The notes beneath the pieces were generated by a model. That model did no database searches and was not told where the DNA came from. It worked only from the letters and a program-made list of their open reading frames with translations. DNA of 64,000 bases from an uncultured Candidatus Saccharibacteria bacterium (GTDB lineage: Bacteria > Patescibacteriota > CAZHWT01). Position 1 is the first letter of the stretch; each line of letters starts with the position of its first letter. Shown in pieces: positions 11,473-34,891 of the stretch. Position numbers and translations under genes: made by a program. The stretch is from positions 124,818 to 188,817 of the forward strand of contig CAZKPX010000001.1 of NCBI GenBank assembly GCA_964554805.1. The letters are read 5' to 3'.

Positions 11473-13554
11473 TTATCTAGCTCGGTTTTCGATAATTGTT
11501 TGGGCTACGTTGCGTGGAACTTCTTGGTAGTGGCTAGGCTCCATAGCGGAGCTAGCACGTCCCTGAGTCATACCACGTAACTGAGTGGTGTAGCCAAACA
11601 TCTCGGAAAGAGGTACTGTGGCGTGGACAACACGGACGTTGCCGCGCTGCTCCATTTCCTGGATCTGACCACGCTTAGCGTTTAAGTCGCCGATGACATC
11701 ACCCATGAACTCTTCGGGGGTGGTGACTTCGACTTTCATAACTGGTTCAAGGAGAGAAGCTTCGGCTTTGCGAGCTCCATCTTTGACTGCCATGGAGGCG
11801 GCTACCTTGAAGGCAACTTCGGATGAGTCGACTTCGTGGTATGAACCATCATAAACGGTAACTTTCATATCTACAACAGGGTAGCCTGCCAAGACACCTG
11901 AATCCCAGGCCTCTATAACACCTTTTTGAACTGCAGGAATAAATTCACGAGGAATGGATCCGCCAACGACTGCGTTCACAAACTCATTGCCTTCGCCTGG
12001 GTTTTTTGGTTCCAAGCGAAGCCAAACGTGACCATACTGGCCACGACCACCAGATTGCTTGACATACTTGCCTTCGATTTCGACCGGCTTGCGGATAGAT
12101 TCTCGATAGGCAACCTGTGGGGCGCCGACATTGGCCTCAACTTTGAATTCACGCTTCATGCGATCGACCAAGATTTCGAGGTGCAACTCACCCATACCGG
12201 CAATCAGAGTCTGAGAAGTCTCAACGTTTGAAGTGACAGCAAAGGTTGGATCTTCTTCGGCCAAGCGACGTAAGGCCAGACCCATCTTTTCCTGGTCACC
12301 CTTAGTTTTAGGCTCTACAGCTACCTGGATAACTGGAGCTGGGAATTTGATGCTTTCTAGTACAACAGTTCCGCCATCAACAGTTAGAGTATCGCCAGTA
12401 ACGGTGTCTTTTAGCCCCACAGCGGCTGCGATATCGCCAGCGTAGCAGGTGTCGATTTCTTCACGGTGGTTAGCATGCATCTGCAGGATACGTCCTACAC
12501 GCTCTTTAGCGCCTTTGGTAGAGTTGGTAATGTATGATCCAGACTTAAGAGAACCTGAGTAAACTCGCAAGTAGGTCAAACGACCAACGAATGGGTCAGA
12601 CATGATCTTGAAAGCTAGGGCGATGAATGGTGCGTCATCCTTGGTTTCAACAACGACTTCTTCCTCGGAGCTAGCACTGATGTGACCGATGATTGGAGGA
12701 ACATCCATTGGAGATGGCAGGTAGTCCAACACTGCATCAAGCAGCAATTGAACCCCTTTGTTTTTTAGGGCGGTACCAGTCAATACTGGGAAAATCTTTA
12801 CATCAATGGTGGCTTGACGAAGGGCCGGGATAAGCTCTTCAACAGTGATTTCTTCACCAGACAGATACTTTTCTAGCAACACATCATCAGTTTCGGCTAC
12901 TTTTTCAACTAGTTCGGCGCGCCACTTGGTGGCTTCTTCGAGCATGTCGGCTGGAACATCAGTGATTTCCATTTCCTTACCCATATCATCTTTCCAGATG
13001 GTAGCTTTCATATCGAGCAGGTGAACTACTCCGGTGAAGCTGGATTCGGAACCGATTGGTAACTGAAGCGGAACTGGATTGGCGCCCAGACGCTGTTTGA
13101 TGGAATCTACACAGTGGTAGAAGTTTGCACCCATGCGGTCCATTTTGTTAATAAAGCAGATACGTGGCACATGATACTTATCAGCTTGGCGCCAGACAGT
13201 TTCTGATTGAGGCTCAACACCAGCTACGCCGTCAAACAAGACTACACCGCCATCAAGAACACGCAAGCTGCGCTCTACTTCAGCGGTGAAGTCAACGTGC
13301 CCTGGGGTGTCGATGATATTGATACGAGTATCTTTCCAGAAACAAGTAGTGGCAGCAGAGGTAATGGTAATACCACGCTCCTGCTCTTGCTCCATCCAGT
13401 CCATGGTGGCAGCACCTTCATGTACTTCACCGATTTTATATGTCTTGCCGGTGTAGTAAAGGATTCGCTCGGTTGTGGTGGTCTTGCCAGCATCAATGTG
13501 AGCAATAATACCGATGTTGCGAATTTTTTGGAGGTTATGTGTCGTACTGTCCAT
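11473..13554 (-). CDS. fusA: Elongation factor G
   Basis: [25 protein letters not shown] motifs; 693 aa. Confidence 0.95.
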
Positions 13555-13607
13555 GGTATTGATCCTAATTGGTAATAGTGGGTCGGGTAGTTAACGGAAC
13601 CGACAAT

Positions 13608-14075
13608 TTAATACTTAAAGTGAGAGAAGGCACGGTTGGCATCTGCCATTTTCTGCATGTCTTCGCGGCGCTTTACAGAAGCACCGGTGTTCTTGGAAGC
13701 ATCCAAAATTTCGCCAGCTAAACGCTCTTTCATAGAACGACCTGGACGCTTTTTGGCGAAGGAGATCATCCAACGAGCGGCCAAAGCTTCTTTGCGATCA
13801 CCGCGAACTTCGATGGGTACTTGGTATGACGAACCGCCAACACGACGAGACTTAACTTCTTGTCGAGGAGCAACGTTCTTCATGGCTAATTCAAAAGTCT
13901 CTAGTGGGTTCTCTTCGCCCATTTCTTTGAGCTGATCAAAAGCGCCGTAGACGATGCCTTGAGCAACAGTCTTCTTGCCGCCAATCATAACTCGATTGAT
14001 AAACTTGGCTACTACACGTGAGTGATAGATAGCATCTGGTTCAATAATTCGTTTTGGTGCTCTTTTACCGCGCAT
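13608..14075 (-). CDS. rpsG: 30S ribosomal protein S7
   Basis: S7 sequence in str-operon order. Confidence 0.9.
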   Translation of the reverse strand: MRGKRAPKRIIEPDAIYHSRVVAKFINRVMIGGKKTVAQGIVYGAFDQLKEMGEENPLETFELAMKNVAPRQEVKSRRVGGSSYQVPIEVRGDRKEALAARWMISFAKKRPGRSMKERLAGEILDASKNTGASVKRREDMQKMADANRAFSHFKY

Positions 14076-14102: not shown

Positions 14103-14537
14103 TTAGGAAGCCTTGGCTCCCTTTACTACTTCAACCTTCTTGGCGCCATATAGTGAACGAGACTGACGACGCTTTTCAACGCCCTTGGCATCGAGAACAC
14201 CACGAATAATGTGATACTTCACACCTGGCAAATCTTTAACACGACCGCCGCGAACAAGAACGATTGAGTGTTCCTGTAGGTTGTGGCCTTCGCCTGGAAT
14301 GTAGGCAGTAACCTCTTGCTTGTTGGACAAGCGAACACGAGCAACCTTACGCAAAGCTGAGTTAGGCTTTTTTGGAGTCATGGTTTTGACGATGGTGCAG
14401 ACACCGCGCTTTTGGGGGTTGGTGGTAACACTGCTCTTGCGCTTGTTAGAGTTGTAACTACGACGCAGGGCTGCAGCCTTGACTTTGGTATTTTTGCTGG
14501 AACGTCCTTTGCGGACAAGTTGGTTAATTGTTGGCAT
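14103..14537 (-). CDS. rpsL: 30S ribosomal protein S12 (144 aa, with an internal basic insertion)
   Basis: [12 protein letters not shown]... and the [26 protein letters not shown] motifs. Confidence 0.9.
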
Positions 14538-14671
14538 ACATGATTGCTCTTAAATAATTTTATTCTTGCTAATGATATTTTGCTAAAAACTTAATCTAAT
14601 TTCAGTCAACCTCACGATTGGATCGGAGTAAAAATTGCGCCCTGCTTTTAAGTGGGCGCTCAACAGGGGGG

Positions 14672-14700
14672 ATTATATACAAAAATCAGTGACGGGTCAA
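14672..14700 (-). promoter_or_regulatory. Sigma70-like promoter for the rpsL (str) operon: TTGACC, 17-nt spacer, TATAAT
   Basis: On the minus strand: cTTGACCcgtcactgatttttgtaTATAATcc. This is a perfect -35/-10 consensus with 17-bp spacing, about 135 nt upstream of the rpsL ATG. Confidence 0.55.
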
Positions 14701-14718
14701 GCCCCATTCTGCTTTATG

Positions 14719-14750
14719 GAGCGACGAGCGACAGGCTACGGGCGACGGGG
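14719..14750. repeat. Copy of the dispersed GCGACGAGCGACRGG heptad-repeat element
   Basis: GAGCGACGAGCGACAGGCTACGGGCGACGGGG. Related copies lie at 6271-6302, 34489-34520, 50001-50038, 51860-51889 and 60165-60194. Confidence 0.6.
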
Positions 14751-14822
14751 AAGAAATTGCTCAAAACTTAGGCAAATAATACCCCTCCTCTAGACCTCGG
14801 GGTTGTTTGCTAAATGGTGGGG

Positions 14823-14854
14823 AATCAGAGCTGGCTAGGTGGCCAGCTCTGATT
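14823..14854 (-). terminator. 12-bp perfect inverted repeat (AATCAGAGCTGG / CCAGCTCTGATT) overlapping the stop codon of the 229-aa gene
   Basis: Palindrome seen directly. The TAG stop (14835-14837) falls in the loop. There is no strong U tract, so the function is uncertain. Confidence 0.4.
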
Positions 14855-15524
14855 CGGCGTCCTGTCGAACTTTCTCTTCGATCAGCCTGATGGTCTCATC
14901 CTCAGTGTTAGTCATCATGCCATACAGCAACTGCTGTATGGGGAGTCCTGCTTGACGATAGGGGGCGTAAAAGAACCTCTCGAAGTAATCCCGGATTCGC
15001 CAAGTGACGGTTGAATCAGTGTCCGGATTGAGTTGGCGGAACAAGTCTCCTTCAAATACTCGACTATCTATTTGTCGCATAAATTCAAAGATTTGATTGT
15101 CTCCAAATCTCTGAATGAGTAGTTCTGGATGCTGAGTGGCTTCCAGAGACACACTGATTGCAACCCAGCATAGCTCGACTTGATGGCGGTCGTTTAATGA
15201 CCAGACTAGTCGGATAGATAGAAGATCTACTTCTGACTGTCGCAGATTGAGAACCAGACCAAAGCCGGGCAAATAGGTATCTTGGTCACCTACTTTGTCA
15301 TATGTTTCAGGGATGTATGTCTCCAAGCCTACTGCTACCCGGTAGTCGCTATCTGGGTGGAGTATGCACCACTGTCCATAGCTAAAGTCGAGGTGCGGAC
15401 TGCCGTCCTTTGGATCCAAGCGCCTATCCGGATGGATAATGGCTTTTATCATTTCCATCAGATCTTCAAGCTGGACAATACCAGCTTTATAGTCTCGCTC
15501 TTCACTCATTGCCCTGCTCTCCAC
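14835..15524 (-). CDS. Hypothetical protein (229 aa), first gene of the accessory island
   Basis: Long ORF between the rpsL promoter and the island. No recognisable family. Confidence 0.5.
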   Translation of the reverse strand: MESRAMSEERDYKAGIVQLEDLMEMIKAIIHPDRRLDPKDGSPHLDFSYGQWCILHPDSDYRVAVGLETYIPETYDKVGDQDTYLPGFGLVLNLRQSEVDLLSIRLVWSLNDRHQVELCWVAISVSLEATQHPELLIQRFGDNQIFEFMRQIDSRVFEGDLFRQLNPDTDSTVTWRIRDYFERFFYAPYRQAGLPIQQLLYGMMTNTEDETIRLIEEKVRQDAESELAT

Positions 15525-15654
15525 TGGCCGCCTGATTACGGCGTGGCCATTCTATAGCGATTCATTGGTAATGTCAAAAAAGTGACGGACGACGAAGTTT
15601 CAACTAACCTAAAATCATAGCTATAGGCAAAACTACGTCTTAAGCCAATGGTTT

Positions 15655-15688
15655 TTGGCTGAAGGTTGTTAGATGATGTGATACAATG
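15655..15688 (+). promoter_or_regulatory. Candidate extended -10 promoter (TGaTACAAT) for a small plus-strand transcription unit
   Basis: tgtgATACAAT at 15679-15687. The -35 is weak (TTGGCT at non-optimal spacing). Confidence 0.3.
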
Positions 15689-15740
15689 TGGCGGCCTTGA
15701 GGGTCAGGGCGAGACAGATTGGAAGAGTTTGGAGGAGATC

Positions 15741-15938
15741 GTGCTGCTTGAAAAAATTGTAAATGGGACTCCATTTCAATTGCTGGCGACTGCAGTGCTG
15801 GCGGTTGGTGTGGTCAGAGTCATCGCTGCGAATCGTGGGCTACGGCCTCGCCAAACAAATACGGGACGGCCTGGAAGACAGACGGCAGGACCAAGGCGGG
15901 AGCTCGTCCGGTTAAAAATTCATCCGATTGAAATCTAG
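15741..15938 (+). CDS. Small ORF (65 aa, GTG start): hydrophobic helix followed by an Arg/Pro-rich tail
   Basis: GGAGG RBS (15731-15735) sits 5 nt before the GTG. The protein is VLLEKIVNGTPFQLLATAVLAVGVVRVIAANRGLRPRQTNTGRPGRQ.... A strong terminator follows. The ATG at 15666 on the ORF track lies inside the candidate promoter. Confidence 0.35.
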   Translation: MLLEKIVNGTPFQLLATAVLAVGVVRVIAANRGLRPRQTNTGRPGRQTAGPRRELVRLKIHPIEI

Positions 15939-15968
15939 CAGGCTGCTACAGTCATGCGTTTGCAAGTT

Positions 15969-16007
15969 GAGCCCGACCAGACATTTAAACTGGTCGGGCT
16001 ATCTTTT
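15969..16007 (+). terminator. Rho-independent terminator (AGCCCGACCAG-loop-CTGGTCGGGCT plus a T run)
   Basis: 11-bp perfect stem followed by ATCTTTTTG. Confidence 0.6.
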
Positions 16008-16019
16008 TGACCATTAATC

Positions 16020-16046
16020 TTACCTATAGGCTTATTATGGTATAAT
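16020..16046 (+). promoter_or_regulatory. Extended -10 promoter (TGgTATAAT) upstream of the 111-aa gene
   Basis: ttattaTGGTATAATtaat at 16038-16046, about 95 nt upstream of the ATG at 16143. Confidence 0.45.
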
Positions 16047-16142
16047 TAATTTAAGATTGATGAGCTGAGAACTAGTGAGGAGGGTAGCACGGGTCTTGAT
16101 TGTGGATTGGACTGAGTCGATCGATATCGACTGGAGGCGGCC

Positions 16143-16478
16143 ATGTCATGGGTAAAATCCTGGTGGGCGGGGCTCTGCGATTTTTTTGTTAGCCCATTCG
16201 ACTTCAGCATGTCTTTCCCTGATGAGCAGGGAGTAATCCACTCCGTTGTGAGCCGAGACGGCAAAGATTTGTTTGAAGCCGTCGACGCTATCAACCTCAA
16301 ACCGATGGCGGCTTATAGCCCGCTTTTCGATCAGAATGTGGTACGGATACCTTTGGATGAAACCTTAAAACTCCAAGAGGGTTGGAGGGTGGAGTTCGAG
16401 AAGGGCTTTGCTCGTCATGAGCAAGCGCTATTCCAATCGTTTATCAACAACCCTCTGGAGTACGGGCCGGGAGTGTAG
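16143..16478 (+). CDS. Hypothetical protein (111 aa)
   Basis: ORF with a promoter upstream and a terminator downstream. No family recognised. Confidence 0.5.
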   Translation: MSWVKSWWAGLCDFFVSPFDFSMSFPDEQGVIHSVVSRDGKDLFEAVDAINLKPMAAYSPLFDQNVVRIPLDETLKLQEGWRVEFEKGFARHEQALFQSFINNPLEYGPGV

Positions 16479-16549
16479 AGTAGCTGTCGACTTCGCGGAT
16501 GTTTTACGAGAGCTTTTTCCGGAGAGACGTCGCTTGAATGTTAGATGAA

Positions 16550-16589
16550 GGGCCATAGCAAAAAAATGCTATGGCCCTCGTTCATTTTT
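16550..16589 (+). terminator. Rho-independent terminator (GGGCCATAGC-A7T-GCTATGGCCC plus T-rich tail)
   Basis: 10-bp perfect stem followed by TCGTTCATTTTT. Confidence 0.6.
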
Positions 16590-16669
16590 GCACAAGAGAA
16601 TCTTTGCTTTTTGAATTGCTAAGTGGTATATAGAAGTCATAGATTTTGGTTTGAGACAAGGGAGGAACC

Positions 16670-17215
16670 ATGTCGCCGCATGTTGGCCTCTCGTTGCACG
16701 AGGGGCTCAATGACTCAGATGACCTGAAGCGATACACTACTAGTTCGTTTGCATTTAAGAGCAAGGCGGACGGAGTATGGTATCTCATTGAATGCCGGGA
16801 GGATAACTGGGTCTATGACTACCGCGGTAGCAGCTGGCTGCGGAGTATGGTTGGCAAATCCATCCATAAGCACCCCAACCGCCAAGTGGTGGAAGATCTC
16901 CGAAAAATGCGCAATCGGATAACTCAAGACACTTTTGCGGACGACGATGCTAAGATTGATGAGAAAGCCAGACAAGTGGATTTGAGGCCGCTACTACGCT
17001 GGTACTGGAATCCGTGGGATTTGTTTTGGATTGGAGTGTGTATCGTAATTCTCCTGGCTTGGGTGATGGTGAATATGGCCTTTGTGGTCGGTGTTCAGCT
17101 GAAGGAGATATGGCGAGATCCTCGATGGTACTGGGGCTGGTATATGCAGGGTGTCCGTCGGAGAATTCAACCTGTGTGGAGAAAGTGTGCCCAGGCACTG
17201 CGCTTCCACCAATGA
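16670..17215 (+). CDS. Hypothetical membrane-anchored protein (181 aa) with a Trp-rich C-terminal TM region
   Basis: AGGGAGGAA RBS before the ATG. Soluble N-terminal part, then WYWNPWDLFWIGVCIVILLAWVMVNMAFVVGV..WYWGWY. Confidence 0.55.
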   Translation: MSPHVGLSLHEGLNDSDDLKRYTTSSFAFKSKADGVWYLIECREDNWVYDYRGSSWLRSMVGKSIHKHPNRQVVEDLRKMRNRITQDTFADDDAKIDEKARQVDLRPLLRWYWNPWDLFWIGVCIVILLAWVMVNMAFVVGVQLKEIWRDPRWYWGWYMQGVRRRIQPVWRKCAQALRFHQ

Positions 17216-17229
17216 TAGAAATGTCTGCG

Positions 17230-17266
17230 GCCCGTCTCGAAATTCGAGGCGGGCTATTTTGTTATT
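17230..17266 (+). terminator. Rho-independent terminator (GCCCGTCTCG-AAATT-CGAGGCGGGC plus TATTTTGTTATT)
   Basis: 10-bp stem with one G-U pair, followed by a U-rich tail. Confidence 0.55.
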
Positions 17267-17348
17267 AAAAGTAGCAAGCGTCTTGATTATAGACTTATAG
17301 TATGTTATATTTCGTGTAGTCTTTTGGGTTTCTTTCAATGAAGGAGAA

Positions 17349-17786
17349 GTGCTGGTGGCCAGACAGACTATTTTTGCAACTGGGGAGAGGTATGATGCTA
17401 TTCGCCGAGCCGAGGCTCGAGGCGAAATTTCGGCCCAATTGGCCCAATTGGAGCGACGACGGCAAAAAGCGAGCATCAATGGGTCTCAGCCAACGGTAAC
17501 GTCCAAAATCATGGACTACCTTTTTGGCTGGACCATTAGCGATCGGTGCTACATTGGTCACGGCGAAGTGTTGGCTGTTGAATGCCACAAACCCGCCCGA
17601 GGGGGCGACTTGCAGTATCGGTGGCTCGAACACTGGGAGACTGCAGGGGGTGTTCTCAATGACAAACCATGGCAGTCTTTTGGTGAGATGGGGAAATGCT
17701 TGGGCAAGAGCACAGCCCTGAAGGTTCGCCAAGAACTGGCCAGAAAAAGACCGGAGATATTGCAGGTACGGATTCTGAAAGACTAA
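17349..17786 (+). CDS. Hypothetical protein (145 aa, GTG start)
   Basis: AAGGAGA RBS 4 nt upstream and a terminator downstream. A fully overlapping minus-strand ORF (17295-17813) was judged spurious. Confidence 0.45.
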   Translation: MLVARQTIFATGERYDAIRRAEARGEISAQLAQLERRRQKASINGSQPTVTSKIMDYLFGWTISDRCYIGHGEVLAVECHKPARGGDLQYRWLEHWETAGGVLNDKPWQSFGEMGKCLGKSTALKVRQELARKRPEILQVRILKD

Positions 17787-17817
17787 GAATCTGGACCGCT
17801 GCATCCGTAACAACTAT

Positions 17818-17864
17818 GAGGGTTGGTTAGCAATTTGGCTAACCAACCCTCGCATTCGTTTTAA
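17818..17864 (+). terminator. Strong rho-independent terminator (14-bp perfect stem GAGGGTTGGTTAGC / GCTAACCAACCCTC plus GCATTCGTTTTAAAAG)
   Basis: Inverted repeat and U tract seen directly. Confidence 0.65.
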
Positions 17865-18099
17865 AAGCATTATGTGATTGTAAGCACGCTAAGGCAGAGC
17901 TATAAAATCATATTGGCATGACTTGCACCTTAAAGTATGAACATGCAATAACTATTTAAAAGTATAAGATTTGACTCTTTGATCTACCTACTATATGGAG
18001 TATGAATTAGATACACCATACTCATTATATCTTATAGTTATTTACATAATGCTTCTTATATGTTAGTATACTATAGTTCCCTGTTGTTTAAGGCTTTGA

Positions 18100-18516
18100 A
18101 TGAAAGGTTGTCATGTGGGCTTAAACACACAGCTAATAGCTGTTCCTGGCGATATGGCATTGCCTAACCACCTGAGCAGCGAATGGCTTGATGAGCATGA
18201 ATCAGAGATCTGCTATCTAGCAGAATGGAGAAAGGACTATGTCCTACACAGATGGTTCACTGCAAAGGTCGAGCATGCTTCTACCCTAGACCATGAAGGG
18301 TCGGGGTGTCGTATCGTTCGACAAGTTCTCGAGGAGCTTTTGGAAGTAGTGCGAACTATTCGCACCTGCACTAAAACCGAAGCAGAGATACTGTTTCCTG
18401 GTGCTTGGGGTTCGGGTCATCTTCCAGATGAAGATTACCTGGATTCAATCGAAGGCTCTCTGACTGACGCTCTGGCTCACCGAGATATTACAAATTTTTA
18501 CTACATTGCATCCTAG
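18100..18516 (+). CDS. Hypothetical protein (138 aa), preceded by a 220-bp AT-rich segment
   Basis: ORF followed by a terminator. No family recognised. Confidence 0.45.
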   Translation: MKGCHVGLNTQLIAVPGDMALPNHLSSEWLDEHESEICYLAEWRKDYVLHRWFTAKVEHASTLDHEGSGCRIVRQVLEELLEVVRTIRTCTKTEAEILFPGAWGSGHLPDEDYLDSIEGSLTDALAHRDITNFYYIAS

Positions 18517-18540
18517 CTTTGGGAATGCAGTGGAAGATGT

Positions 18541-18581
18541 CCCCGACTTTGGCTTGCTTGAGTCGGGGATCTTTCATTTTT
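18541..18581 (+). terminator. Rho-independent terminator (CCCCGACT...AGTCGGGG plus ATCTTTCATTTTT)
   Basis: 8-bp stem and a T run. Confidence 0.55.
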
Positions 18582-18619
18582 ACTCATTATTAATTATCAA
18601 GATACCAGTTATATACAAC

Positions 18620-18648
18620 AAAACCCCACCTACAATAGGTGGGGTTTT
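18620..18648 (-). terminator. rpoC terminator: perfect hairpin AAAACCCCACCT-ACAAT-AGGTGGGGTTTT (reads as a terminator on either strand)
   Basis: 12-bp perfect stem flanked by A and T runs, 28 nt after the rpoC stop. Confidence 0.6.
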
Positions 18649-18675
18649 GTAATTGATAATTCTTAATCCGCAGAT

Positions 18676-21600
18676 TTACGAATCGATGCGAGCGGAGTCG
18701 CCGGTTGGGATGAGGCGGCCGATGATGACGTTCTCTTTTAGTCCAACCAGACGATCGATCTTGCCCTGGGTAGCGGCATTGGTTAGGACGCCGGTGGTTT
18801 CCTGGAAGGAAGCGGCTGATAACCAAGACTCGGTTAAGAGTGACGAGCGGGTAATACCGAGAATAGTCATCTCAGCAGTAGCCACTTCTCCACCCTCAGC
18901 TAAGATGCGGCCGTTTTCCTCTTCGAACTTGATGCGCTCAATGAGGTCTCCTGGCATCATACTGGAGTCACCGGAAGACATGACACGAACCTTATCGAAC
19001 ATTTTGCGAACGATGATTTCGGCATGCTTGCTCTGGATGTCGATACCTTGGCTCTTATAGACGTTCTGAACTTCTTGCAGCAGATACTGCTGAACAGCTT
19101 TGACGCCGCGGATAGCCAACATTTCTCGGAGGTCGAAGTGACCTTCGGTGAGAGCTTGACCGGCTAGAACAGTTGCGCCATTGGCAACGGCTACTACTGA
19201 TCCAATCGAGATGACGTATTCACGCTCATCACGAAGCTGGTAAGATAGAGTGATGGTAGTCTTCTGGCCGGACTTGGTTGCCACTTCAACAGTAGCATTG
19301 TCGCGGGCTTTGACTTCACCGTCGGCAGTCTTGTAGATAGGTTGACCCTTAACTACTTCAGCGCCGTTCTTAACAAGAGCTTTTTCGTCTTCTTTAAGAG
19401 TAATAGACTCGCTCAAGATTTCGATAGACTCTACCTTGGCGATGGTGCGGCCGTTTTCTTGCTTATCAAGAGTAACAGCACCGCTGATTTCTGACAGAAT
19501 GGCTGGATCTTTAGGTGTGCGAGCTTCGAAAAGCTCTTCAACACGTGGCAGACCCTGAGTAATATCTTTACCAGCAACGCCACCAGTGTGGAAGGTACGC
19601 ATGGTTAGCTGTGTACCAGGCTCACCGATTGACTGAGCGGCGATAACACCAACTGCAGTACCCATCTTAACCAACTGTCGGCTACCGAGATCTCGACCAT
19701 AACAGAGAGCACAGATGCCGTATTTGGCTTGGCATGTCAGGGCGGTGCGGTAGGTGACTTCAGCTACGTCAGCTGCTTCAACAATTTGCTTCATTTCAGC
19801 TTCGCCGATTAAAGTACCGGCTGTCATGACAACCTTATCCTTGGCATCAACGATGTCTCGGGCGATGACACGGCCGAGAGCCTGATCTTGCCAACCATTG
19901 GTTTGGGTGGAGACTGTTAGGCCATCCTTGGTGCGACAGTCGTCGGTACGGATGATGACATCATGAGCAACGTCGACTAAACGACGGGTCAAGTAACCAG
20001 CTTCGGCGGTCATCAAGGCGGTATCGATCAATCCCTTACGGGCGGCACGAGCACCGATGAATCCGTCAAAAGCGGTAGAGCCTTCGATAATATTGGTCTT
20101 GATTGGAGTTTCGATAAGTCGACCCATTGAGTCGTTCATCAATCCTCGCATACCGCTGAGCTGCTTGATGGTATCGCGGTTGGCACGACCAGCCTTGGAG
20201 GCGACGATGAAGGATAGGATGGAATGGGGATCGAGTTGCTCGATAGCCAAGTTTCCAACTTCTTCATTAACGCGGCTCCATAGATCGATGATCAAAGCGC
20301 GACGTTCGCGAGCAGTGGTCAATCCACGTCGGTAGTTCTTTTCGATAACGTCAAGTTCTTTGTTGGCCAAAGCCAGAATCTCGGTACGTTCTACAGGAGT
20401 GTGGAAGTCTCCGACACCAAAACTAGTACCAGCGATGGTGGAATAGTGACGACCAAGTTCCTTGAAGGCGTCGACGAGCAAGACCGTCTGATCGGTTCCG
20501 AACTGATCAAATGACTGAGCCAGAAGGTCGCGCATGGCACGACGATCAACTGCACTGTTGTGGTAGCGCAACTCAACTGGTAGAACCTCGTTGAGATACA
20601 GACGACCAACAGTGGTTTCGACCGGCTGGCCATCCATATAAATGGTGACCGGAGCTTGGATGTGAACAGTCTTGTTTTGCTCAGCCAAAATAGCTTCGGC
20701 GCTGGACAGGAAGGTGCGACCCTTGCCCTTAGCTTGATCGTTGGCGACGGTTAGGTAGTACAGACCAATGGCAAACTCGTTCTTCATGTCGATAACTGGA
20801 GCACCATCAGACAACTTAAGCATGTTGTGAGGAGCCAGCATTAAACGCTCAGCTTCTTCAATAGACTTAGATGACAGTGGAATGTGGACAGCCATCATGT
20901 CTCCGTCGAAGTCAGCATTGAAGGCGTTACAGACTGCAGGGTGCAGCTTGATAGCGTTGCCCTCGATCAGGACTGGATAGAAGCCTTGGATACCAAGACG
21001 GTGAAGGGTAGGGGCACGGTTGAGGAGGATTGGGTGATTTACCGAAACCTGCTCGAGGATGTCCCAGACTTCAGTGCCGCGACGTTCGAGAACGTTTTTG
21101 GCGCTCTTGACGTTAGGGGCGAACCCTTGGGCGATGATTTCTCGGAGAACGAAAGGCTTGAACAATTGGAGAGCCATTTCTTTGGGCAGACCACACTGGT
21201 CAAGACGCAGCTCAGGACCAACGACGATAACTGAACGACCGGAATAGTCGACACGCTTACCAAGTAGGTTTTGGCGGAAACGACCTTGCTTACCCTTAAG
21301 CATTTCGGACAGTGAACGCATCTTCTGCGCGGCTCGACGAGTGGTAGCTCGCTTTTCGCGCTGAGATGAGTCGATCAACGCGTCAACTGCTTCTTGGAGC
21401 ATGCGCTTTTCGTTGCGCAAGATAATCTCAGGAGCACCGAGATCCATCAAACGACGAAGACGGTTGTTGCGGTTGATGACGCGACGATACAGGTCATTCA
21501 GATCTGAAGTGGCGAAACGACCACCGGATAACTGAACCATGGGACGCAACTCTGGTGGAATAACTGGTAAGACCGTGGTGATCATCCAAACCGGATTGAT

Positions 21601-22557
21601 ACGAGCCATCTTGAGGCCTTCAACGACACGCAGACGCTTGGTAGCCTTGGTGCGCTTTGCCAATGAAGGACTCTTGGTTTCCAATTTGAGCTGCTGAGCC
21701 AGTTCGTCCAAGTCAACGACTTCGAGGACGCGCATGATGGCTTCGGCACCCATGCCAACCTTGACAATGCTATCAGCATCCCAGAATGCTAGTTCGGCGT
21801 AATCATTTTCTGACAGAAGATCAAGTGGCTTAAGGGCCTTAATCTTGCTCTCTAGTTCATGGAATGACTTATCGAGCAGGGCTTGTTCTTTGGCAAGATC
21901 TTCGCGAAGAGAGCTGATGCGCTTCTTAAGGTTAAGATGACGCTCTTGCTGACGGATTTCGGTTGATTCGGCTTTGGACTTCTTGCTCTCGGCAGCAACT
22001 TCATCAGCAGCGGCTTCAATTTCTTGAATGCGCTCGTCAGTATCTTGCTGTAATTCTAATTTCTTTTCGGCTAATTTGGTGTGCAACTGGTTAACTAGTT
22101 GTTCACGAGCACCTTCATCGACCTGCTCAATAAGGTATTGGGCGAAGTAGATAACGCTTTCCATGTTGCGAGGACTGATGTCGAGCAACAGAGATAGTTT
22201 GGAAGGAGCGCCGCGGAAGAACCAGACGTGAGCTACAGGGGCGGCCAGGTTGATATGAGCCATACGCTCACGTCGGACCTTGGAATGAGTGACTTCGACA
22301 CCACACTTATCACAGATAACACCCTTATAGCGAATACGCTTGTATTTACCACAGTAGCATTCGAAATCGCGAACCGGGCCAAAAATACGTTCGTCAAATA
22401 GACCGTCTTTTTCTGGCTTGAGGGTGCGATAGTTGATTGTCTCAGGCTTGGCAACTTCACCAAAAGACCATTGCTTAATGTCTTCTGGAGAAGCCAAGGT
22501 GATTTTTAAGGCCTGAAAGTCTTTTAACTCAGTCATATTAGGCATCCTCCTCTTCAT
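18676..22557 (-). CDS. rpoC: DNA-directed RNA polymerase subunit beta'
   Basis: 1293 aa. N-terminal zinc-binding CxxC...CxxC, NADFDGD catalytic motif, and C-terminal cysteines. Confidence 0.95.
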
Positions 22558-25999: not shown

Positions 26000-26483
26000 A
26001 AAATGCTGCCTTCTGGGGTATTGGTTAGTTGTCAGTTGGACTAGCTGACTAATAAACAGATAATCTGTAGAGATCGTGTCGCCGCCGTACCGCAGTAAAC
26101 GCTCTGCCGGCTAGACGCACGCTCCGTATTATCCAATCTATTGTCTGGACTAGAAAAACTGGAACTATCTAAGAAGTTGACCGTGCTTCTTAGGGGTGAT
26201 GCTAAGGTTTTAGTTTTTTGTTTTTAAACTGATTCGTTGGTGCGTTTATGTAGTTCAATCGAGCAAACTAGGTAATTTTGGAGCTTGCTTGATCGTCTAA
26301 ACAACGAAAATTAGACGCATGTACCGACTGTCCCCGGAGGAACCCAATGCGTCTTCTGAAAGAAGTGTAAGTTTTATTGTTGTGTTACTAATCTCAGAGT
26401 AATTACCCAAACTAAATTTAGTGGAGTCACTGTACCACAATAAGCCTCGACCGTCAAGGTGCAGGCATGGCATGATTCGATAG

Positions 26484-26511
26484 TTGATTTGTGGAATATA
26501 TGCCCTATAAT
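26484..26511 (+). promoter_or_regulatory. Sigma70-like promoter (TTGATT, 16-nt spacer, TATAAT) for the 26534 gene
   Basis: agTTGATTtgtggaatatatgcccTATAATagg. The ATG at 26534 follows about 22 nt downstream. Confidence 0.45.
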
Positions 26512-26533
26512 AGGCGACGAAGTGGCGAGTCGA

Positions 26534-27073
26534 ATGCAGAAGGAGAAGATCGTGGACAAGTGGCTTGTTTTCAGTGTAGTAGCCGTTCTGGGCTTGGCGG
26601 TGATTTGGTTTATCGTGAGAAGATGCTGGCCGAATAAGGTCAAGCCTGAATTGAGTGCTGGTAAAGATACAAAGCAGGAGACTGCAGAAGCTCCGGTGGA
26701 GATCGTACCGTACCGTGAGCCGACTGTTAACAAAGTCAGTAGTTGCACAATTTCAGTTCAACCAACCATCGCTGCGGCCAATCCCTACTTCAAGGTACGA
26801 CGCGATATGAAATCACTGTTGTTTGAGCTTTCAAAGGAAGTGAGCCTTCACCAGCAAAGATCTATTCGCAACAAGCTGACTAATGAGCTGACCATTAAGG
26901 CGACTCACATACACTGGGTCAACTCGAATGAGCTGCTCGTTGTTCGCCCCCACCAAAAGCGGAAAGATAGTAGCTGGCAAGCACAGACGATCAGTGCTGT
27001 ACAAAGCTGTTTGAAGAGAGAGTTTCCCTGGTGGGAGATTGACTTGGTCTCGAATGGTATTCAGAAGCAATGA
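26534..27073 (+). CDS. Hypothetical membrane-anchored protein (about 180 aa; N-terminal TM, then a soluble domain)
   Basis: MQKEKIVDKWLVFSVVAVLGLAVIWFIV... The ORF-track start at 26459 lies inside the promoter. Confidence 0.5.
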   Translation: MQKEKIVDKWLVFSVVAVLGLAVIWFIVRRCWPNKVKPELSAGKDTKQETAEAPVEIVPYREPTVNKVSSCTISVQPTIAAANPYFKVRRDMKSLLFELSKEVSLHQQRSIRNKLTNELTIKATHIHWVNSNELLVVRPHQKRKDSSWQAQTISAVQSCLKREFPWWEIDLVSNGIQKQ

Positions 27074-27082
27074 TGCTAGCAG

Positions 27083-27120
27083 ATGGCGCTCCCTATGTTG
27101 GGGGGCGCCATTCCTTTTTT
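27083..27120 (+). terminator. Rho-independent terminator (ATGGCGCTCCC-loop-GGGGGCGCCAT plus TTCCTTTTTT)
   Basis: 11-bp stem and a T run. Confidence 0.65.
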
Positions 27121-27179
27121 AAAAAATATAAACTGACAGTAGCATTCCCAAAGTTTGACTATTAAGGCATACTTAACAT

Positions 27180-27677
27180 ATGCAAGAACCACTTCACCCT
27201 GAAACTAAGATTGGTCATATTCATTTGAAAGTGTCGGATGTGGCGAAGTCTATTGAGTTTTATCAGGATGTGTTGGGGTTTGAACTGGTGGATGACTTTG
27301 GGCATGCGGCTTTTTTGTCGGCTGGTGGGTATCACCATCATATTGGCTTGAATACTTGGGAGAGCCATAAGGGGCGTCCGGCTGATGGGCATACCGGTTT
27401 GTATCATGCAGCCATTTTGTATCCGAGTCGCAAGGAATTGGGTAAGGCTTTGGAACGGCTGATGAAACATAAATACCCAATCATTGGGGCTTCTGATCAT
27501 GGGGTGAGTGAGGCTATATATTTGGAAGACCCGGATGGTAATGGTTTGGAATTGTACTGGGATAGGCCGCGCGAAGATTGGCCAATGAAGGCTAATGGTA
27601 AGCCTGAAATGTTCACTAAACCACTTGATTTGGACGACTTATTAGCTCAAGCTCATCGACGAGCTCATTTGGACTAG
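27180..27677 (+). CDS. VOC-family protein (glyoxalase / extradiol-dioxygenase-like fold)
   Basis: IGHIHLKVSDVAKSIEFYQDVLGFELV ... GYHHHIGLNTWES ... AIYLEDPDGNGLELYWDR. These are typical paired beta-alpha-beta-beta-beta modules with metal-binding His/Glu residues. Confidence 0.7.
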   Translation: MQEPLHPETKIGHIHLKVSDVAKSIEFYQDVLGFELVDDFGHAAFLSAGGYHHHIGLNTWESHKGRPADGHTGLYHAAILYPSRKELGKALERLMKHKYPIIGASDHGVSEAIYLEDPDGNGLELYWDRPREDWPMKANGKPEMFTKPLDLDDLLAQAHRRAHLD

Positions 27678-27807
27678 TTTTCCATGGAGTGCTAGTTGAT
27701 TATCAGAGACAATAGTGCATGGAAAGGGCTAGAGTGCTAACCATAATTAAGCCATGAGGGCGTGGAAATTGACTGGTTTGCAGACTCAAGACGACCACTC
27801 CTCTAGC

Positions 27808-29334
27808 CTAGTCTACTAACTGGAGAGTGTAATTGGATGTTTGCTGAATGACTGGCAGGTCGGGATTGAAGGGTTTGTCGGCTTGGCGTTTGTTGAGGTC
27901 TTGGATGTAGAGGGTCAGATAGCCTGGCTGACAGTCTTGAATGAAACGAATGTCCTGACGCTTAGTGATATAAACATTAAGATAATCTAGGTCAGTATAG
28001 TCTTGGCCATAGTATGAGCAGATGGTGGTATTTGAAGGAAGTTCGTTTATAATGTCTCTTTTTTGAACAACTGAAATCCTGTGGTCAGTAGTTAGGTCGG
28101 TTTTGATGGCTTTGGCGGTGTAAAAAGTGTTGAGGGTAAGTGATCCAACGAGTAATAAAGCCAATGAGGTAACAACAATATTGCGGATTGGTGGATTATT
28201 TTTAGAAACTATAAATGAGTAACCAATGAGGGAAACGAGTAAAAGGGTTGGTAGCCAATAGCCGATCAGGATGTAGTGATGATGAATGGTGTCCTGGTAG
28301 CCTGAGCCAAAGATGATGAATAGTAGCCAGGGTGCAATAATGAGGATGGCTAGCGTTTTATTTAGTTTGAAGAAAGCATATCCGCCTGCTAGCAAAAGTA
28401 GGGTCGCCAATAAACCTATGATGGCTGGTTGGGTTAGTTGAGGCATTAGCGCGGCTTGAATAAGGGTGAAATTGTAGTCGATGGCCCTGCCTAGTCGCTC
28501 CAGCAAAGTACTGGATGAGGATTGACCAAGGTAGCTGATGATGGCTGAAGTGTTTTGCCAGTTGGAAGTGAATTGGCCGATGAGATATGGGATATGAATG
28601 ATAATCGCAGTGAGGGCAAGGATGGCTGGGCCTGGCCACTGGGATATTTTGTTTTTATAGAGCCAGTAGCCACAGAATAGCATTGCCCAGAGTGGTAAGA
28701 CAAATAGAGCTGTGGAATGAAGCCCCATGCTGAAACCGAGACATATGCCGGCTATGGCCCACCATGATAATTGAGATAGCTGGCGATTCTTTATTTTTAA
28801 TGGCAGGTCTTTTTGAATGGCGTAAAAGCTACAAGTTAGACCTAATACTGCCAGAGGTAATGGATTGGGATTCCAGACGCCGATCGATAGGCCGAAATAC
28901 CAATAACCGACAGCTATGAATAGGCTGGCTAAAAGTGCTAGCAGCTGGCGCGACCGCCGACTTAGTGATTGTAAAAGCCAGTGATAGCAAACCAGATAGA
29001 TGAGGCCGATGCCGAATAGACAGGCTAGCGTATTAACTAACAAATGGAGCTGCGGCCATGGGCCGAGGGCTGCGAATGGCAGCATGGCGTAATAATATTG
29101 TGGTGGCAAGGAGAAAGCGCTGACTGAGGCTGATGGTCCGAGAGTCGGCCAGTTTCCAGCCAAAGCTTGTTGGAGGACAAAAGCATCACGAGCTTGGTCG
29201 TAGTAAAATTCGACGTAGTGAAATAAGGGGAATGCTCGAAGGCTAATAGCCAGAACAATGATTGTCAGGACTAATCCGCCATAGAGTAATGGCCAGAATT
29301 GATTAGAAAATTGGAACCGACTGTTTGAGTTCAT
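27808..29334 (-). CDS. GT-C-fold glycosyltransferase (ArnT/PMT-like, about 12 TM)
   Basis: 508-aa polytopic membrane protein. The first loop carries a YYDQARDAF motif resembling the DE-motif loop of GT39/GT83 enzymes. Confidence 0.55.
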   Translation of the reverse strand: MNSNSRFQFSNQFWPLLYGGLVLTIIVLAISLRAFPLFHYVEFYYDQARDAFVLQQALAGNWPTLGPSASVSAFSLPPQYYYAMLPFAALGPWPQLHLLVNTLACLFGIGLIYLVCYHWLLQSLSRRSRQLLALLASLFIAVGYWYFGLSIGVWNPNPLPLAVLGLTCSFYAIQKDLPLKIKNRQLSQLSWWAIAGICLGFSMGLHSTALFVLPLWAMLFCGYWLYKNKISQWPGPAILALTAIIIHIPYLIGQFTSNWQNTSAIISYLGQSSSSTLLERLGRAIDYNFTLIQAALMPQLTQPAIIGLLATLLLLAGGYAFFKLNKTLAILIIAPWLLFIIFGSGYQDTIHHHYILIGYWLPTLLLVSLIGYSFIVSKNNPPIRNIVVTSLALLLVGSLTLNTFYTAKAIKTDLTTDHRISVVQKRDIINELPSNTTICSYYGQDYTDLDYLNVYITKRQDIRFIQDCQPGYLTLYIQDLNKRQADKPFNPDLPVIQQTSNYTLQLVD

Positions 29335-29450
29335 GTTTTTTAAGATTAGCAGACAATTGTTGTAAGTACAAAGGATATTTGAATTTTATAATGGAAATGG
29401 TAAAGGCTGCCCGACAAATGATATCGGACAGCCTGTTTTGATGGTGCTAG

Positions 29451-30020
29451 CTAGTGAGACCAGTCACGCTCCACTTGGTCTATCCAGTACCATTCGATAT
29501 GGCAGTCGGAACAGCGCGACATAAAACATTGACCGGGCTCAGTATCAAGCCTTAGGACACCCGTAACCCCCGATTCATCCAAGCGCTCGATCCGCTCGCC
29601 GATTGAGATTGTATTCTCAAAGCGACCAGCAAAAACAATGGGGTCTTGGTATCTCTCTTGATGCTTGCCGCATGACGGGCAACAGATGACGGCCGCTCCG
29701 CAGTCGAGACATAGACCAACAGACTCTCCCAGGTAGCAGTTTTCCTGGGCGGTTGTCAGGAGCTGTGGCAGCTTTGATTGGAGCAGTGTGGTTTGCTGGT
29801 GACGACAAGCTCGCTGCACTGCCAATGCCTCGCGATTGCATACTTCGATATTCTGATTCTGATGATCAATCCGTGACTGCAGAGCCTTAATCTGTTCTTG
29901 AGCCAGGCTTATTAGCAAGGCTCGCGGATGAAGACCATCTATGTCTTGCTTAGCAAGATCCTGAACCGCCGTTGACTGGGCCAGATCGTTAGCTGGACGA
30001 TTCGTTTCAGTCTGACTCAC
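29451..30020 (-). CDS. Cys-rich zinc-ribbon protein with coiled-coil N-terminal half (COG1579-like)
   Basis: CLDCG...CPSCG and CFMSRCSDCH cysteine clusters after a predicted helical region. Confidence 0.35.
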   Translation of the reverse strand: MSQTETNRPANDLAQSTAVQDLAKQDIDGLHPRALLISLAQEQIKALQSRIDHQNQNIEVCNREALAVQRACRHQQTTLLQSKLPQLLTTAQENCYLGESVGLCLDCGAAVICCPSCGKHQERYQDPIVFAGRFENTISIGERIERLDESGVTGVLRLDTEPGQCFMSRCSDCHIEWYWIDQVERDWSH

Positions 30021-30140
30021 TTTGTACTCCCTACTCTACCAGGTCGCACCTTTGACCTACTGCCTGACATTATAGTTTAAAAAGGCAGCTAGTCAAGCAA
30101 AGATTTTCTGAGATGGAAAATGCGAAGAGGTGAAGAATTT

Positions 30141-30407
30141 TTAAATTCGTTTTAACTTTGCAAGTAGACCACCAATAAGCCCAGCTATTGGTAGTACTGA
30201 CAACCATATTACGGTTAATATATCCAACAATCCAAGAACTAAATACACAACCATAGCGATTGCTGCTCCGTAGACGAACATCATTTGACTGCTAGGCAGG
30301 CTTTTATTGCATTCTTTTACACTCAGACAACTAACTGCTAACGTCACTACAATGACCGCTAGCCCATATAGTAGACCATCTAGAATCACATAATTTAATA
30401 AAGCCAA
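30141..30407 (-). CDS. Small membrane protein (88 aa, 2-3 TM)
   Basis: Strongly hydrophobic ORF with no homology assessed. Confidence 0.3.
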   Translation of the reverse strand: MALLNYVILDGLLYGLAVIVVTLAVSCLSVKECNKSLPSSQMMFVYGAAIAMVVYLVLGLLDILTVIWLSVLPIAGLIGGLLAKLKRI

Positions 30408-30574
30408 GATAACGGCACTAGCACCGCCATATAAGAGAAAATTTTAAGTTGGATTAATTTATGTTTATCCATAAGGTTTTCAGCCTGCCCAGGTGAGTAT
30501 TATATTATATTAAGCATTTGGCTCATGATATGGAGGAGGTGTTCTGAGATGCACACCCGGAAGGGGTGAGACTT

Positions 30575-30991
30575 TTAGTCGTCTTTGATGAGGTGCTTGT
30601 CTACTACAGATAGGAGATAGTCGACGTCGAAGGGTTTCATGATGAAGTCGTCGACTTGGAGGTCGCGGGCGATTTGGGGGGTGGACATGTTGGCGGAGAC
30701 GAAAATGACGGGGATGGTTTGGCCGACGGGGTGTTGGCGGAGTTGTTTGAAGACATCGCGGCCGTCTCCCCCACCGACCCAGATATCCAGGAGGATGAGC
30801 TGCGGAGGATCTTTTTCAATCAGTGGCATAACCTGATCGGCAGAATCAATAGCTAAGACTTGATAACCCTTTGTTCCAAGGATGGCAGTGAGTGCATCGA
30901 GAATGTCTTGGTCGTCTTCGACTACCATAACCGTGCTATTGTTTGAACTGGCTGGGGCTAATTCTAATTCAAGGGCGACTGATGAGTCCAT
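30575..30991 (-). CDS. Stand-alone response-regulator receiver domain (CheY-like)
   Basis: VMVVEDDQDILDAL ... LILLDIWVGGGDG ... FVSANMS ... K at the expected positions (phospho-acceptor Asp, Thr/Ser, Lys). Confidence 0.7.
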   Translation of the reverse strand: MDSSVALELELAPASSNNSTVMVVEDDQDILDALTAILGTKGYQVLAIDSADQVMPLIEKDPPQLILLDIWVGGGDGRDVFKQLRQHPVGQTIPVIFVSANMSTPQIARDLQVDDFIMKPFDVDYLLSVVDKHLIKDD

Positions 30992-34610: not shown

Positions 34611-34681
34611 AGCGGATGAGAGGATTCGAACCTCCAGCCTTCCCAGGAGTCGGGATGCTCTGCCTTTTGAGCTTCATCCGC
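34611..34681 (-). tRNA. tRNA-like gene with a non-canonical anticodon arm (4-bp stem, loop GACUCCU); isotype unassigned, possibly a pseudo-tRNA
   Basis: Perfect 7-bp acceptor stem (GCGGATG/CATCCGC). D arm GCTC-AAAAGGCA-GAGC. T arm GGAGG-TTCGAAT-CCTCT. The anticodon region is 2 nt short and lacks U33 and R37. Confidence 0.5.
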
Positions 34682-34697
34682 ACTTCCTCATGAAGGG

Positions 34698-34773
34698 CGC
34701 CCGCAGAGGGATTTGAACCCCCGATCTGCTCTTTACGAAAGAGCTGCTCTAGTCCAGGCTGAGCCACACGGGC
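34698..34773 (-). tRNA. tRNA-Thr (anticodon CGU)
   Basis: 76-nt cloverleaf. Acceptor GCCCGTG/TGCGGGC, anticodon stem GCTCT/AGAGC, loop TTCGTAA, T loop TTCAAAT. No encoded CCA. Confidence 0.8.
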
Positions 34774-34817
34774 GATATGCCGACTTGCTTTATGCTCTGG
34801 CGAAACCTGAGCAGTAG

Positions 34818-34891
34818 TGGGCGAGAAAGGATTCGAACCTCTGACCTCAGAACTGTCAGTCCTGCGCTCTTACCATCTGAGCTACACGCCC
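34818..34891 (-). tRNA. tRNA-Val (anticodon GAC)
   Basis: 74-nt cloverleaf. Acceptor GGGCGTG/CTCGCCC, D arm GCTC-AGATGGTAA-GAGC, anticodon loop CTGACAG, T loop TTCGAAT. Confidence 0.85.

Follow-up and report, generated by a model that had tools for sequence, protein, structure and literature searches.

Between rpsL (14103-14537, minus strand) and rpoC (18676-22557, minus strand) of the window, the whole 64-kb stretch of DNA that was analysed, lies a gap of 4138 bp containing a minus-strand gene, gene A, and plus-strand open reading frames (ORFs) of 65, 111, 181, 143-145 and 138 aa, labelled B to F. These coordinates and ORFs bear out the claim of an earlier note that a 4.1-kb block interrupts the rpsL-rpoC arrangement. 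The rpsL side of the block is housekeeping (rpsL, rpsG, fusA and tuf) and the other flank is rpoB/rpoC; a second insertion of the same kind is present upstream of rpoB, where the annotated genes are glyoxalase, response regulator, YceG and RuvX. The features of the block are listed below.

14538-14834, minus strand: predicted rpsL promoter and leader, with promoter-like TTGACC-17-TATAAT at 14700-14672 (scan score 11/12)
14822-14855, minus strand: 14-bp perfect hairpin over the gene A stop codon, -27.4 kcal/mol, z-score -8.7, with no clear T-run after it on the minus strand
14835-15509, minus strand: gene A, an acidic protein (pI 4.6) of 224 aa, or of 229 aa from the GTG at 15524, predicted as alpha/beta
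15549-15577, minus strand: promoter-like TTGACA-17-TAGAAT of gene A, 11/12 matches
15679-15687, plus strand: extended -10-like TGaTACAAT of unit B, sequence prediction
15741-15938, plus strand: ORF B (B65), 65 aa, doubtful, with one hydrophobic segment and an Arg-rich tail
15969-15999, plus strand: predicted intrinsic terminator of unit B, -22.7 kcal/mol, z-score -5.4
16038-16046, plus strand: extended -10-like TGgTATAAT of gene C, sequence prediction
16143-16478, plus strand: gene C, 111 aa, acidic, orphan
16549-16578, plus strand: predicted intrinsic terminator of gene C, -26.9 kcal/mol, z-score -6.4
16624-16632, plus strand: extended -10-like TGgTATATA of gene D, sequence prediction
16670-17215, plus strand: gene D (D181), 181 aa, basic, 13 Trp (7.2%), one predicted transmembrane helix near the C terminus, orphan
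17229-17255, plus strand: predicted intrinsic terminator of gene D, -22.2 kcal/mol, z-score -5.0
17283-17311, plus strand: promoter-like TTGATT-17-TATATT of gene E with an upstream TG, sequence scan
17355-17786, plus strand: gene E, 143 aa (145 aa from 17349), basic, orphan
17817-17852, plus strand: predicted intrinsic terminator of gene E with a 15-bp stem, -27 kcal/mol, z-score -7.2
17860-18099, no strand: AT-rich non-coding spacer, GC about 0.38, with promoter-like TTTACA-17-TAGTAT for gene F at 18041-18069
18100-18516, plus strand: gene F, 138 aa, acidic, orphan
18541-18568, plus strand: predicted intrinsic terminator of gene F, -20 kcal/mol, z-score -3.9
18609-18659, no strand: bidirectional hairpin AAAACCCCACCTA...TAGGTGGGGTTTT, -25 to -26 kcal/mol on either strand

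The plus strand between 15600 and 18600 holds four ORFs of at least 100 aa, spanning 575 codons together; four such ORFs were found in none of 2000 dinucleotide-preserving shuffles, for which the mean was 38 codons. Six ORFs, mostly on the strand opposite to their surroundings, had been proposed; the five on the plus strand are present and four of them exceed chance, whereas the one of 65 aa is doubtful. All units have their highest codon score in the proposed frame, with GC higher at codon position 1 than at position 2. Housekeeping genes score 0.4-1.0, higher than C to F (-0.05 to 0.25), and have a third-position GC (GC3) of about 0.45-0.50, lower than C, D and E (0.57-0.60); similar scores and GC3 occur in other weakly expressed genes of the window. 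Independent gene calls in a public collection comprise the same plus-strand ORFs, ORF B excepted, and start gene E at the GTG at 17355 (143 aa).

In GC content the block does not look foreign. Outside the low-GC zone its GC is 0.46-0.51 (window mean, 0.479), and GC equals the genome average save in the 240-bp AT-rich spacer. The segment before 18100 had been described as AT-rich, which holds for about 17750-18250 (GC 0.38), the only part of low GC, but not for the remainder, which resembles the window.

Each plus-strand stop codon is followed, 14-71 nt downstream, by a predicted terminator with a T-run behind it. The five terminators (-20 to -27 kcal/mol; z-scores -3.9 to -7.2), which none of 200 shuffles equalled in folding, agree with the strong terminators placed earlier at 15969, 16550, 17230, 17818 and 18541 and support the reading of B to F as a string of separate transcription units. 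Independent terminators are compatible with a shared function. On its plus strand the island carries 7 copies of a loose extended -10 motif, against 16 in the whole 64 kb, and four of the 7 precede B, C, D and E, at 31-105 nt from the start. That every ORF has its own ribosome-binding site is upheld for C, D and E (GGAGG-type motifs) and for A (GGAGAG), but F has only a weak AAGG and the GGAGGAG of ORF B is merely 3 nt ahead of its GTG. The bidirectional hairpin at 18609-18659 would end minus-strand transcripts of rpoC and give those of the plus strand a second stop.

Two of the predicted proteins had been singled out by composition. D181, with 7.2% Trp and one predicted transmembrane segment, fits the description of a Trp-rich membrane-anchored protein. 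The small hydrophobic peptide corresponds to B65, which has its one hydrophobic segment but is doubtful as a gene: its codon score is negative (-0.26) and it has no gene call in the public collection. The unit B transcript shows a mild excess of structure (z-score -2.6), and the unit may be a short non-coding transcript instead of a protein gene.

For gene A, first taken as an ORF of 229 aa, the ATG at 15509 is the most likely start, giving 224 aa, because a GGAGAG 8 nt upstream, the database gene call and the N-terminal alignment with its homolog agree on this codon. Its single homolog in a search of 1.84 billion representative proteins (about 15 billion sequences) is distant (P0006; 31% identity, E = 1.2e-7), and a profile search added no further members to the family. 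The homolog is encoded upstream of rpsL, on the same strand, in a related genome (L162) whose RpsL, RpsG and EF-G are 78%, 81% and 80% identical to those of this genome. The order there is gene A homolog, DUF4287, rpsL; rpoC is absent from the 8.4 kb upstream, and TTGACT-17-TATAAT, comparable to the promoter-like element here, precedes rpsL. Both proteins contain the motifs AGI..L.DL..MIK, LDFSYG, PGF, VFEGDLFR.L.PD and P.QQLL. These motifs and the same-strand site upstream of rpsL indicate a small clade-restricted family, with two known members; because it stays beside rpsL in the relative, gene A appears to be older than the plus-strand orphan genes and separate from them.

Within the same 1.84 billion proteins, genes C, D, E and F had no match other than themselves. 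The block proteins had no family match in Pfam, NCBIfam, PHROGs (noise only) or the PDB, in keeping with the earlier description of ORFs without a recognisable family, and the homolog of gene A is the only relative found. No Rfam family matched in the block. Structure prediction, advised as a route to fold assignment, yielded no fold; AlphaFold2 on C to F gave a very low mean pLDDT of 38.5, from concatenated single-sequence input that makes this a weak test. The block has one further copy (L081), whose DNA is 100% identical and so offers no differences by which to measure selection on C to F. Orphan status is to be expected here because the lineage is so thinly sampled.

In outgroup Patescibacteria of four lineages (L168, L170, L171/L172 and L173), with RpoC 54-58% identical to that of this genome, rpoC is followed by rpsL after 55-178 bp. 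The closest relatives (RpoC 76-78% identical) carry quite different genes past rpoC: FMN reductase, two membrane-anchored hypothetical proteins and murI in L164, an acidic hypothetical protein in L163, and FMN reductase on the P0009 contig. A search of 161 loci and of the close relatives L162-L167 turned up only two similarities to the island, the homolog of gene A in L162 and a brief, weak D181 match in L164 (E = 0.008). Since the four outgroup lineages keep rpoC adjoining rpsL, comparison of these junctions supports the block as an insertion relative to an ancestral rpoC-rpsL adjacency. The proposal of a variable region is borne out by the differing junctions, and conservation of the block at this site in distant lineages, which would have spoken against it, was not seen in the outgroups. 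Acquisition of six unrelated genes as one block is upheld as to the insertion, but not as to its unity, gene A being an apparently older, rpsL-linked family and B being doubtful. Across bacteria, a multi-kilobase rpoC-rpsL gap is common; the two genes are not adjacent in 28 of 60 informative rpoC-seeded contigs.

The block is probably a flexible islet specific to its lineage, made up of fast-evolving orphan genes that are singly transcribed and insulated from the flanking operons, in uncultured Patescibacteria (CPR) of which few genomes are sampled. It would have the rpoBC terminator on one side and the promoter of rpsL (str operon) on the other, where the ancestral spacer would have been about 55-180 bp. 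Two layers can be proposed. The first would be gene A, a putative clade-restricted, fast-evolving cytoplasmic protein that stays upstream of rpsL and co-oriented with it in the sole other sampled genome showing the rpsL-upstream region of the clade. The second would comprise the orphan genes C, D, E and F, and perhaps the small unit B, on the opposite strand, each unit consisting of one gene, preceded by a promoter-like element of the extended -10 type and a Shine-Dalgarno sequence (the weak AAGG at F) and followed by a strong predicted intrinsic terminator. Such an insertion would be tolerated as lying outside both flanking operons. As the plus-strand units point head-on at the rpoC 3' end, their terminators, with the bidirectional rpoC hairpin, would halt antisense transcription into rpoC. 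The proteins are likeliest to be dispensable, rapidly changing accessory proteins, one membrane-anchored and the others small and soluble; as a set, the genes do not resemble a system whose parts cooperate. Unsampled mobile DNA may be their source, or they may have arisen locally. In Patescibacteria, genomic islands and genes gained by transfer are reported in the hundreds, amounting to as much as 13% of genome length (PMC12455944).

Flexible genomic islets resemble the block in being absent from the outgroup junction, in content that differs between close relatives, in their hypothetical or orphan genes and in a harmless site between a terminator and a promoter. They differ in that the block is without mobility genes, tRNA, flanking direct repeats or GC deviation, and in the apparently older, rpsL-linked gene A; lacking these four marks, the block would probably be missed by standard island predictors. 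An insertion sequence or transposon was rejected, as transposase and terminal inverted repeats were not found.

A rather unlikely origin is a prophage or integrative element that has degraded, leaving moron-like cargo units behind once the mobility genes had gone. Phage morons, which sit between phage genes, each consist of one gene with a promoter and terminator to itself. The plus-strand units resemble them in that a promoter-like element and a ribosome-binding site (weak for F) precede a single ORF and a terminator follows it, opposite to the neighbouring genes. Orphans are also typical among phage accessory genes, and the GC3 of C, D and E exceeds that of housekeeping genes. The units nevertheless lie outside any recognised phage or prophage: no integrase, recombinase, transposase or phage structural gene was found in the block, no tRNA lies at the junction, flanking repeats (at most 13 nt) are at chance level with no significant direct or att-like repeats, and GC is average. 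A tBLASTn search of 50,697 phage records and 72,556 plasmid records returned nothing at E <= 0.1, and two scans of viral contigs were negative.

It is likewise unlikely, and a little more so, that some or all of the plus-strand ORFs are non-functional, representing decaying or non-coding DNA or short RNAs. The missing homologs, the low codon scores (negative for the uncalled B65), the very low AlphaFold2 confidence and the mild excess of structure in the unit B transcript would fit such an origin. Against it stand the four long ORFs tiling one strand, which shuffling did not reproduce, the well-spaced Shine-Dalgarno motifs before C, D and E, the terminators close behind the stop codons, the superior score of every proposed frame, the agreement of independent gene calls and the empty Rfam search. 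Small CPR genomes are compact, with which the keeping of 3 kb of junk is at odds.

There is a slim chance that the block, or part of it, is a new functional module of episymbiotic CPR, with new-fold anti-phage or host-contact proteins including D181 and a type I toxin-like B65, or with the gene A family as a factor specific to the clade and linked in function to the str operon.

The defence, immunity or toxin island suggested earlier was not borne out. The sole PADLOC (PADLOC-DB v2) match among the block proteins is noise, namely a type I restriction specificity subunit (E = 0.0064, 13 bits) over 28 residues of the doubtful B65, and a known anti-phage system was rejected for want of a significant match to these HMMs. 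The neighbours examined are housekeeping or annotated non-defence genes, none recognised as a defence gene, and the hypothetical ones upstream of rpoB had no Pfam match. A type II toxin-antitoxin or toxin-immunity pair was rejected, as each gene has its own terminator and no toxin, antitoxin or immunity domain was found by Pfam or NCBIfam. An undescribed anti-phage or toxin-immunity island parked in a conserved neighbourhood is the least probable reading: the proteins are of no known family, membrane-anchored D181 and small hydrophobic B65 are of types common among abortive-infection effectors and type I toxins, and the junction varies between relatives, but the genes form no operon or coupled pair, nuclease, ATPase, NTPase and protease domains were not found by Pfam, and the relatives' junctions are filled by metabolic and membrane genes, none of them defence. 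The likeness to catalogued defence islands (PADLOC/DefenseFinder) goes no further than the broad notion of a variable accessory locus with small uncharacterised proteins.

Other bacteria, too, have small genes in this position between rpoC and rpsL, among them the L7Ae-family gene ybxF/rplGB of Bacillus; the block differs in having no L7Ae or ribosomal-protein domain and in carrying most of its genes on the opposite strand.

By itself, the locus reveals no new system, and much of its apparent uniqueness stems from the few related genomes sampled. As a flexible islet, it would offer four or five proteins that have no relatives in about 15 billion sequences and are encoded in compact, easily cloned units, and a clean, well-bounded case of a small CPR genome gaining lineage-specific genes at an operon boundary with core transcription undisturbed.

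The minus-strand genes rpsL and rpoC are separated by a gap of 4138 bp that contains six ORFs, one on the minus strand (A) and five on the plus strand (B to F). The 4.1-kb interruption described in the earlier note is a real feature, and its coordinates and ORF sizes are as claimed.

14103–14537, minus strand: rpsL, flank of the block
14700–14672, minus strand: near-consensus promoter-like element TTGACC-17-TATAAT, ahead of rpsL
Within the gap, minus strand: ORF A, 229 aa
Within the gap, plus strand: ORFs B, C, D, E and F, of 65, 111, 181, 145 and 138 aa, respectively
18609–18659, both strands: bidirectional hairpin at the end of rpoC
18676–22557, minus strand: rpoC, the other flank of the block

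The 181-residue product of ORF D (D181) has one transmembrane helix and 13 tryptophans (7.2%), and that of ORF B (B65) a single hydrophobic segment, matching the Trp-rich membrane-anchored protein and small hydrophobic peptide noted previously. The AT-rich segment placed before 18100 proved narrower than proposed: its low GC content (0.38) is real but restricted to approximately 17750–18250, the remaining block lying at the window mean of 0.479. No paralogues of the block proteins were found within the window.

Comparison of the rpoC–rpsL junction in relatives, as the earlier note had proposed, showed that four outgroup lineages of Patescibacteria (loci L168, L170, L171/L172 and L173) share the order (RuvX-YceG-)Trx-rpoB-rpoC-rpsL-rpsG-PHP-fusA(-tuf-rpsJ), within each contig's reach, with an rpoC–rpsL spacer of only 55–178 bp. 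Because the two genes are adjacent in all four, adjacency is ancestral and the block in the window is therefore an insertion. Different genes fill the junction in the closest relatives: an FMN reductase, two paralogous membrane-anchored hypothetical proteins and murI in L164, an acidic hypothetical protein in L163, and an FMN reductase in the P0009 contig. Among rpoC-seeded contigs from diverse bacteria, rpsL was adjacent in 32, 1–10 kb away in 11 and absent within at least 5 kb in 17, and the contents of such gaps differ widely.

Several further features of these loci were observed. The PHP-domain gene between rpsG and fusA in all four outgroup lineages is missing in the window (13554–13608) and in the related locus L162, where rpsG and fusA are adjacent. 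RpsL (14103–14537) is 144 aa long with a C-terminal extension, and a similar one occurs in L162; some Chloroflexota/Dehalococcoidia matches covered the full RpsL query, which most other matches did not. The L164 spacer after rpoC (13200–13600) translates to repetitive peptides (LPTCRLAYLPTC..., WGYWVYWGYW), pointing to a short tandem repeat in the DNA there. Residues 110–131 of D181 (window 17000–17070; RWYWNPWDLFWIGVCIVILLAW), its transmembrane anchor, are similar to the anchors at the N termini (KKWYKNPWIWVGVVALVIFIVAW) of the two L164 paralogues (14739–15659 and 15681–16439); the pairwise BLASTP match (E = 3e-4) spans just 38 residues, and the likeness may be fortuitous or reflect an anchor motif specific to the clade.

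A second lineage-specific insertion, similar to the rpoC–rpsL block and approximately 4.6 kb long, lies upstream of rpoB, between rpoB and a response-regulator gene. The distance between these two genes is just 0.4–1.3 kb in L163 and L164.

26000–30560: second insertion
Within it, plus strand: 204-aa ORF
27180–27677, plus strand: glyoxalase/VOC protein
Within it, minus strand: 508-aa multi-pass membrane protein
Within it, minus strand: 189-aa Cys-rich protein
Within it, minus strand: 88-aa transmembrane ORF
30575–30991, minus strand: response-regulator gene, far flank

Elsewhere in the window, on the minus strand at 34611–34891, Rfam reports three tRNAs (34611–34681, 34698–34773 and 34818–34891), and ARAGORN only two (Thr-CGT and Val-GAC).

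On the plus strand between 15600 and 18600, four ORFs reach 100 aa or more and total 575 codons; four such ORFs appeared in 0 of 2000 dinucleotide-preserving shuffles (shuffle mean, 38 codons). In every unit the proposed frame has the top codon score, with GC content higher at codon position 1 than at position 2. The scores are 0.30 for A, 0.25 for F, 0.11 for C, 0.09 for E, −0.05 for D and negative for B65, housekeeping genes scoring higher (0.4–1.0). Two ORFs that overlap D and E on the minus strand (161 and 172 aa) were rejected as true genes on their lower codon scores and the plus orientation of the terminators. An 8.1-kb public contig, whose DNA is 100% identical to that of the window and so shows zero variation on which selection could be gauged, carries gene calls for C, D and F as well as for shorter versions of A (224 aa) and E (143 aa), with B uncalled.

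Each of the five plus-strand hairpins named in the earlier note lies 14–71 nt past a stop codon and has a T-run after it. Their folding energies of −20 to −27 kcal/mol (z-scores −3.9 to −7.2) were equalled in 0 of 200 shuffles, bearing out strong rho-independent terminators after the plus-strand ORFs. A ribosome-binding site for each ORF held in part: C, D and E are preceded by GGAGG-type motifs, but F by a weak AAGG only. The island's plus strand contains seven copies of a loose extended −10 motif (TGnTAnAWW), versus 16 in all 64 kb, and four copies lie 31–105 nt upstream of the B, C, D and E starts; promoter-scan matches were also obtained for E and F. The strong unit terminators, backed up by the bidirectional hairpin at the end of rpoC, would plausibly block antisense transcription into rpoC. 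No Rfam family matched in the island, a sensitive scan giving sub-threshold signals on the terminator hairpins only.

On the minus strand, a −10-like TGCTAGATT at 15940 lies right where the doubtful ORF B65 has its stop codon. At the level of sequence alone, a transcript starting there would be antisense to unit B and overlap its 3′ end, an arrangement seen in type I toxin–antitoxin loci. Between 8000 and 26000 genes are nearly all on the minus strand, yet the plus-strand cumulative GC skew is mostly positive and rises steadily, with skew peaking (0.15–0.26) over the plus-strand island genes.

A full HMMER search, in which the six proteins were joined into one query, covered 1.84 billion representatives (of approximately 15 billion proteins) and returned only self-matches for C, D, E and F. 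The single distant homologue of gene A, P0006 (232 aa, 31% identity, E = 1.2e-7), lies in L162, a locus of 48.1% GC whose RpsL, RpsG and EF-G are 78%, 81% and 80% identical to those of the window. A profile of these two family members found no further ones. P0006 is just upstream of rpsL on the same strand, with one DUF4287 gene between them, and rpoC is absent from the 8.4 kb upstream on L162. Gene A is therefore clade-restricted and fast-evolving and has kept its link to rpsL; it belongs to a different event from the plus-strand orphan genes.

Nothing credible was found for any of the six proteins in Pfam, NCBIfam, PHROGs or PADLOC, in agreement with the description of ORFs of no recognisable family. 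tBLASTn against phages and plasmids found no match, nor did two scans of viral contigs or a sequence search of the PDB, and an AlphaFold2 model of C–F as one concatenated single sequence was unusable (pLDDT 38.5). A helix-turn-helix spotted by eye in the 145-residue product of ORF E had no Pfam support even at E ≤ 1. RpoC is 76–78% identical to that of three uncultured relatives and then at most 58% identical to Patescibacteria such as CPR3, Curtissbacteria and Woykebacteria. The nearest relatives are represented by the assembly GCA_964536215.1 and by contigs from SRR31724220 and JGI 3300047677. An rpsL-seeded genome scan gave matches 65–75% identical, scattered over many phyla, and a metagenome scan with the C terminus of RpoC as seed, used solely for the junction survey, gave relatives at most 51% identical; neither found relatives closer than approximately 50% RpoC identity. 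The lineage is thus a very thinly sampled one within the CPR, and with just three or four relatives, mostly on short contigs, orphan status is expected and not remarkable.

A 13-nt near-repeat at the island edges (14673 and 18609) is no more than chance would give in 5 kb and was rejected as a target-site duplication. The block and its surroundings show no integrase, transposase or tRNA and no significant flanking repeat, and the GC content of the block does not deviate. The promoter–ORF–terminator build of the units resembles that of phage morons, although the block lacks a phage context. Of the earlier proposal of an acquired variable region of possible defence, immunity or toxin kind, the inserted variable region stands, but the functional role has no positive evidence: the PADLOC check of the island gave no credible match, and no defence neighbours, operon pairs or enzymatic domains were recognised.

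According to published work (PMC12455944), Patescibacteria commonly carry genomic islands and transferred genes. The block is a lineage-specific orphan-gene islet, an already known kind. The evidence supports a composition of an older rpsL-linked gene A and four or five one-gene orphan units aimed at the 3′ end of rpoC, and supports reading the whole as a flexible islet at an operon boundary, with the rpoBC terminator on one side and the rpsL promoter on the other.
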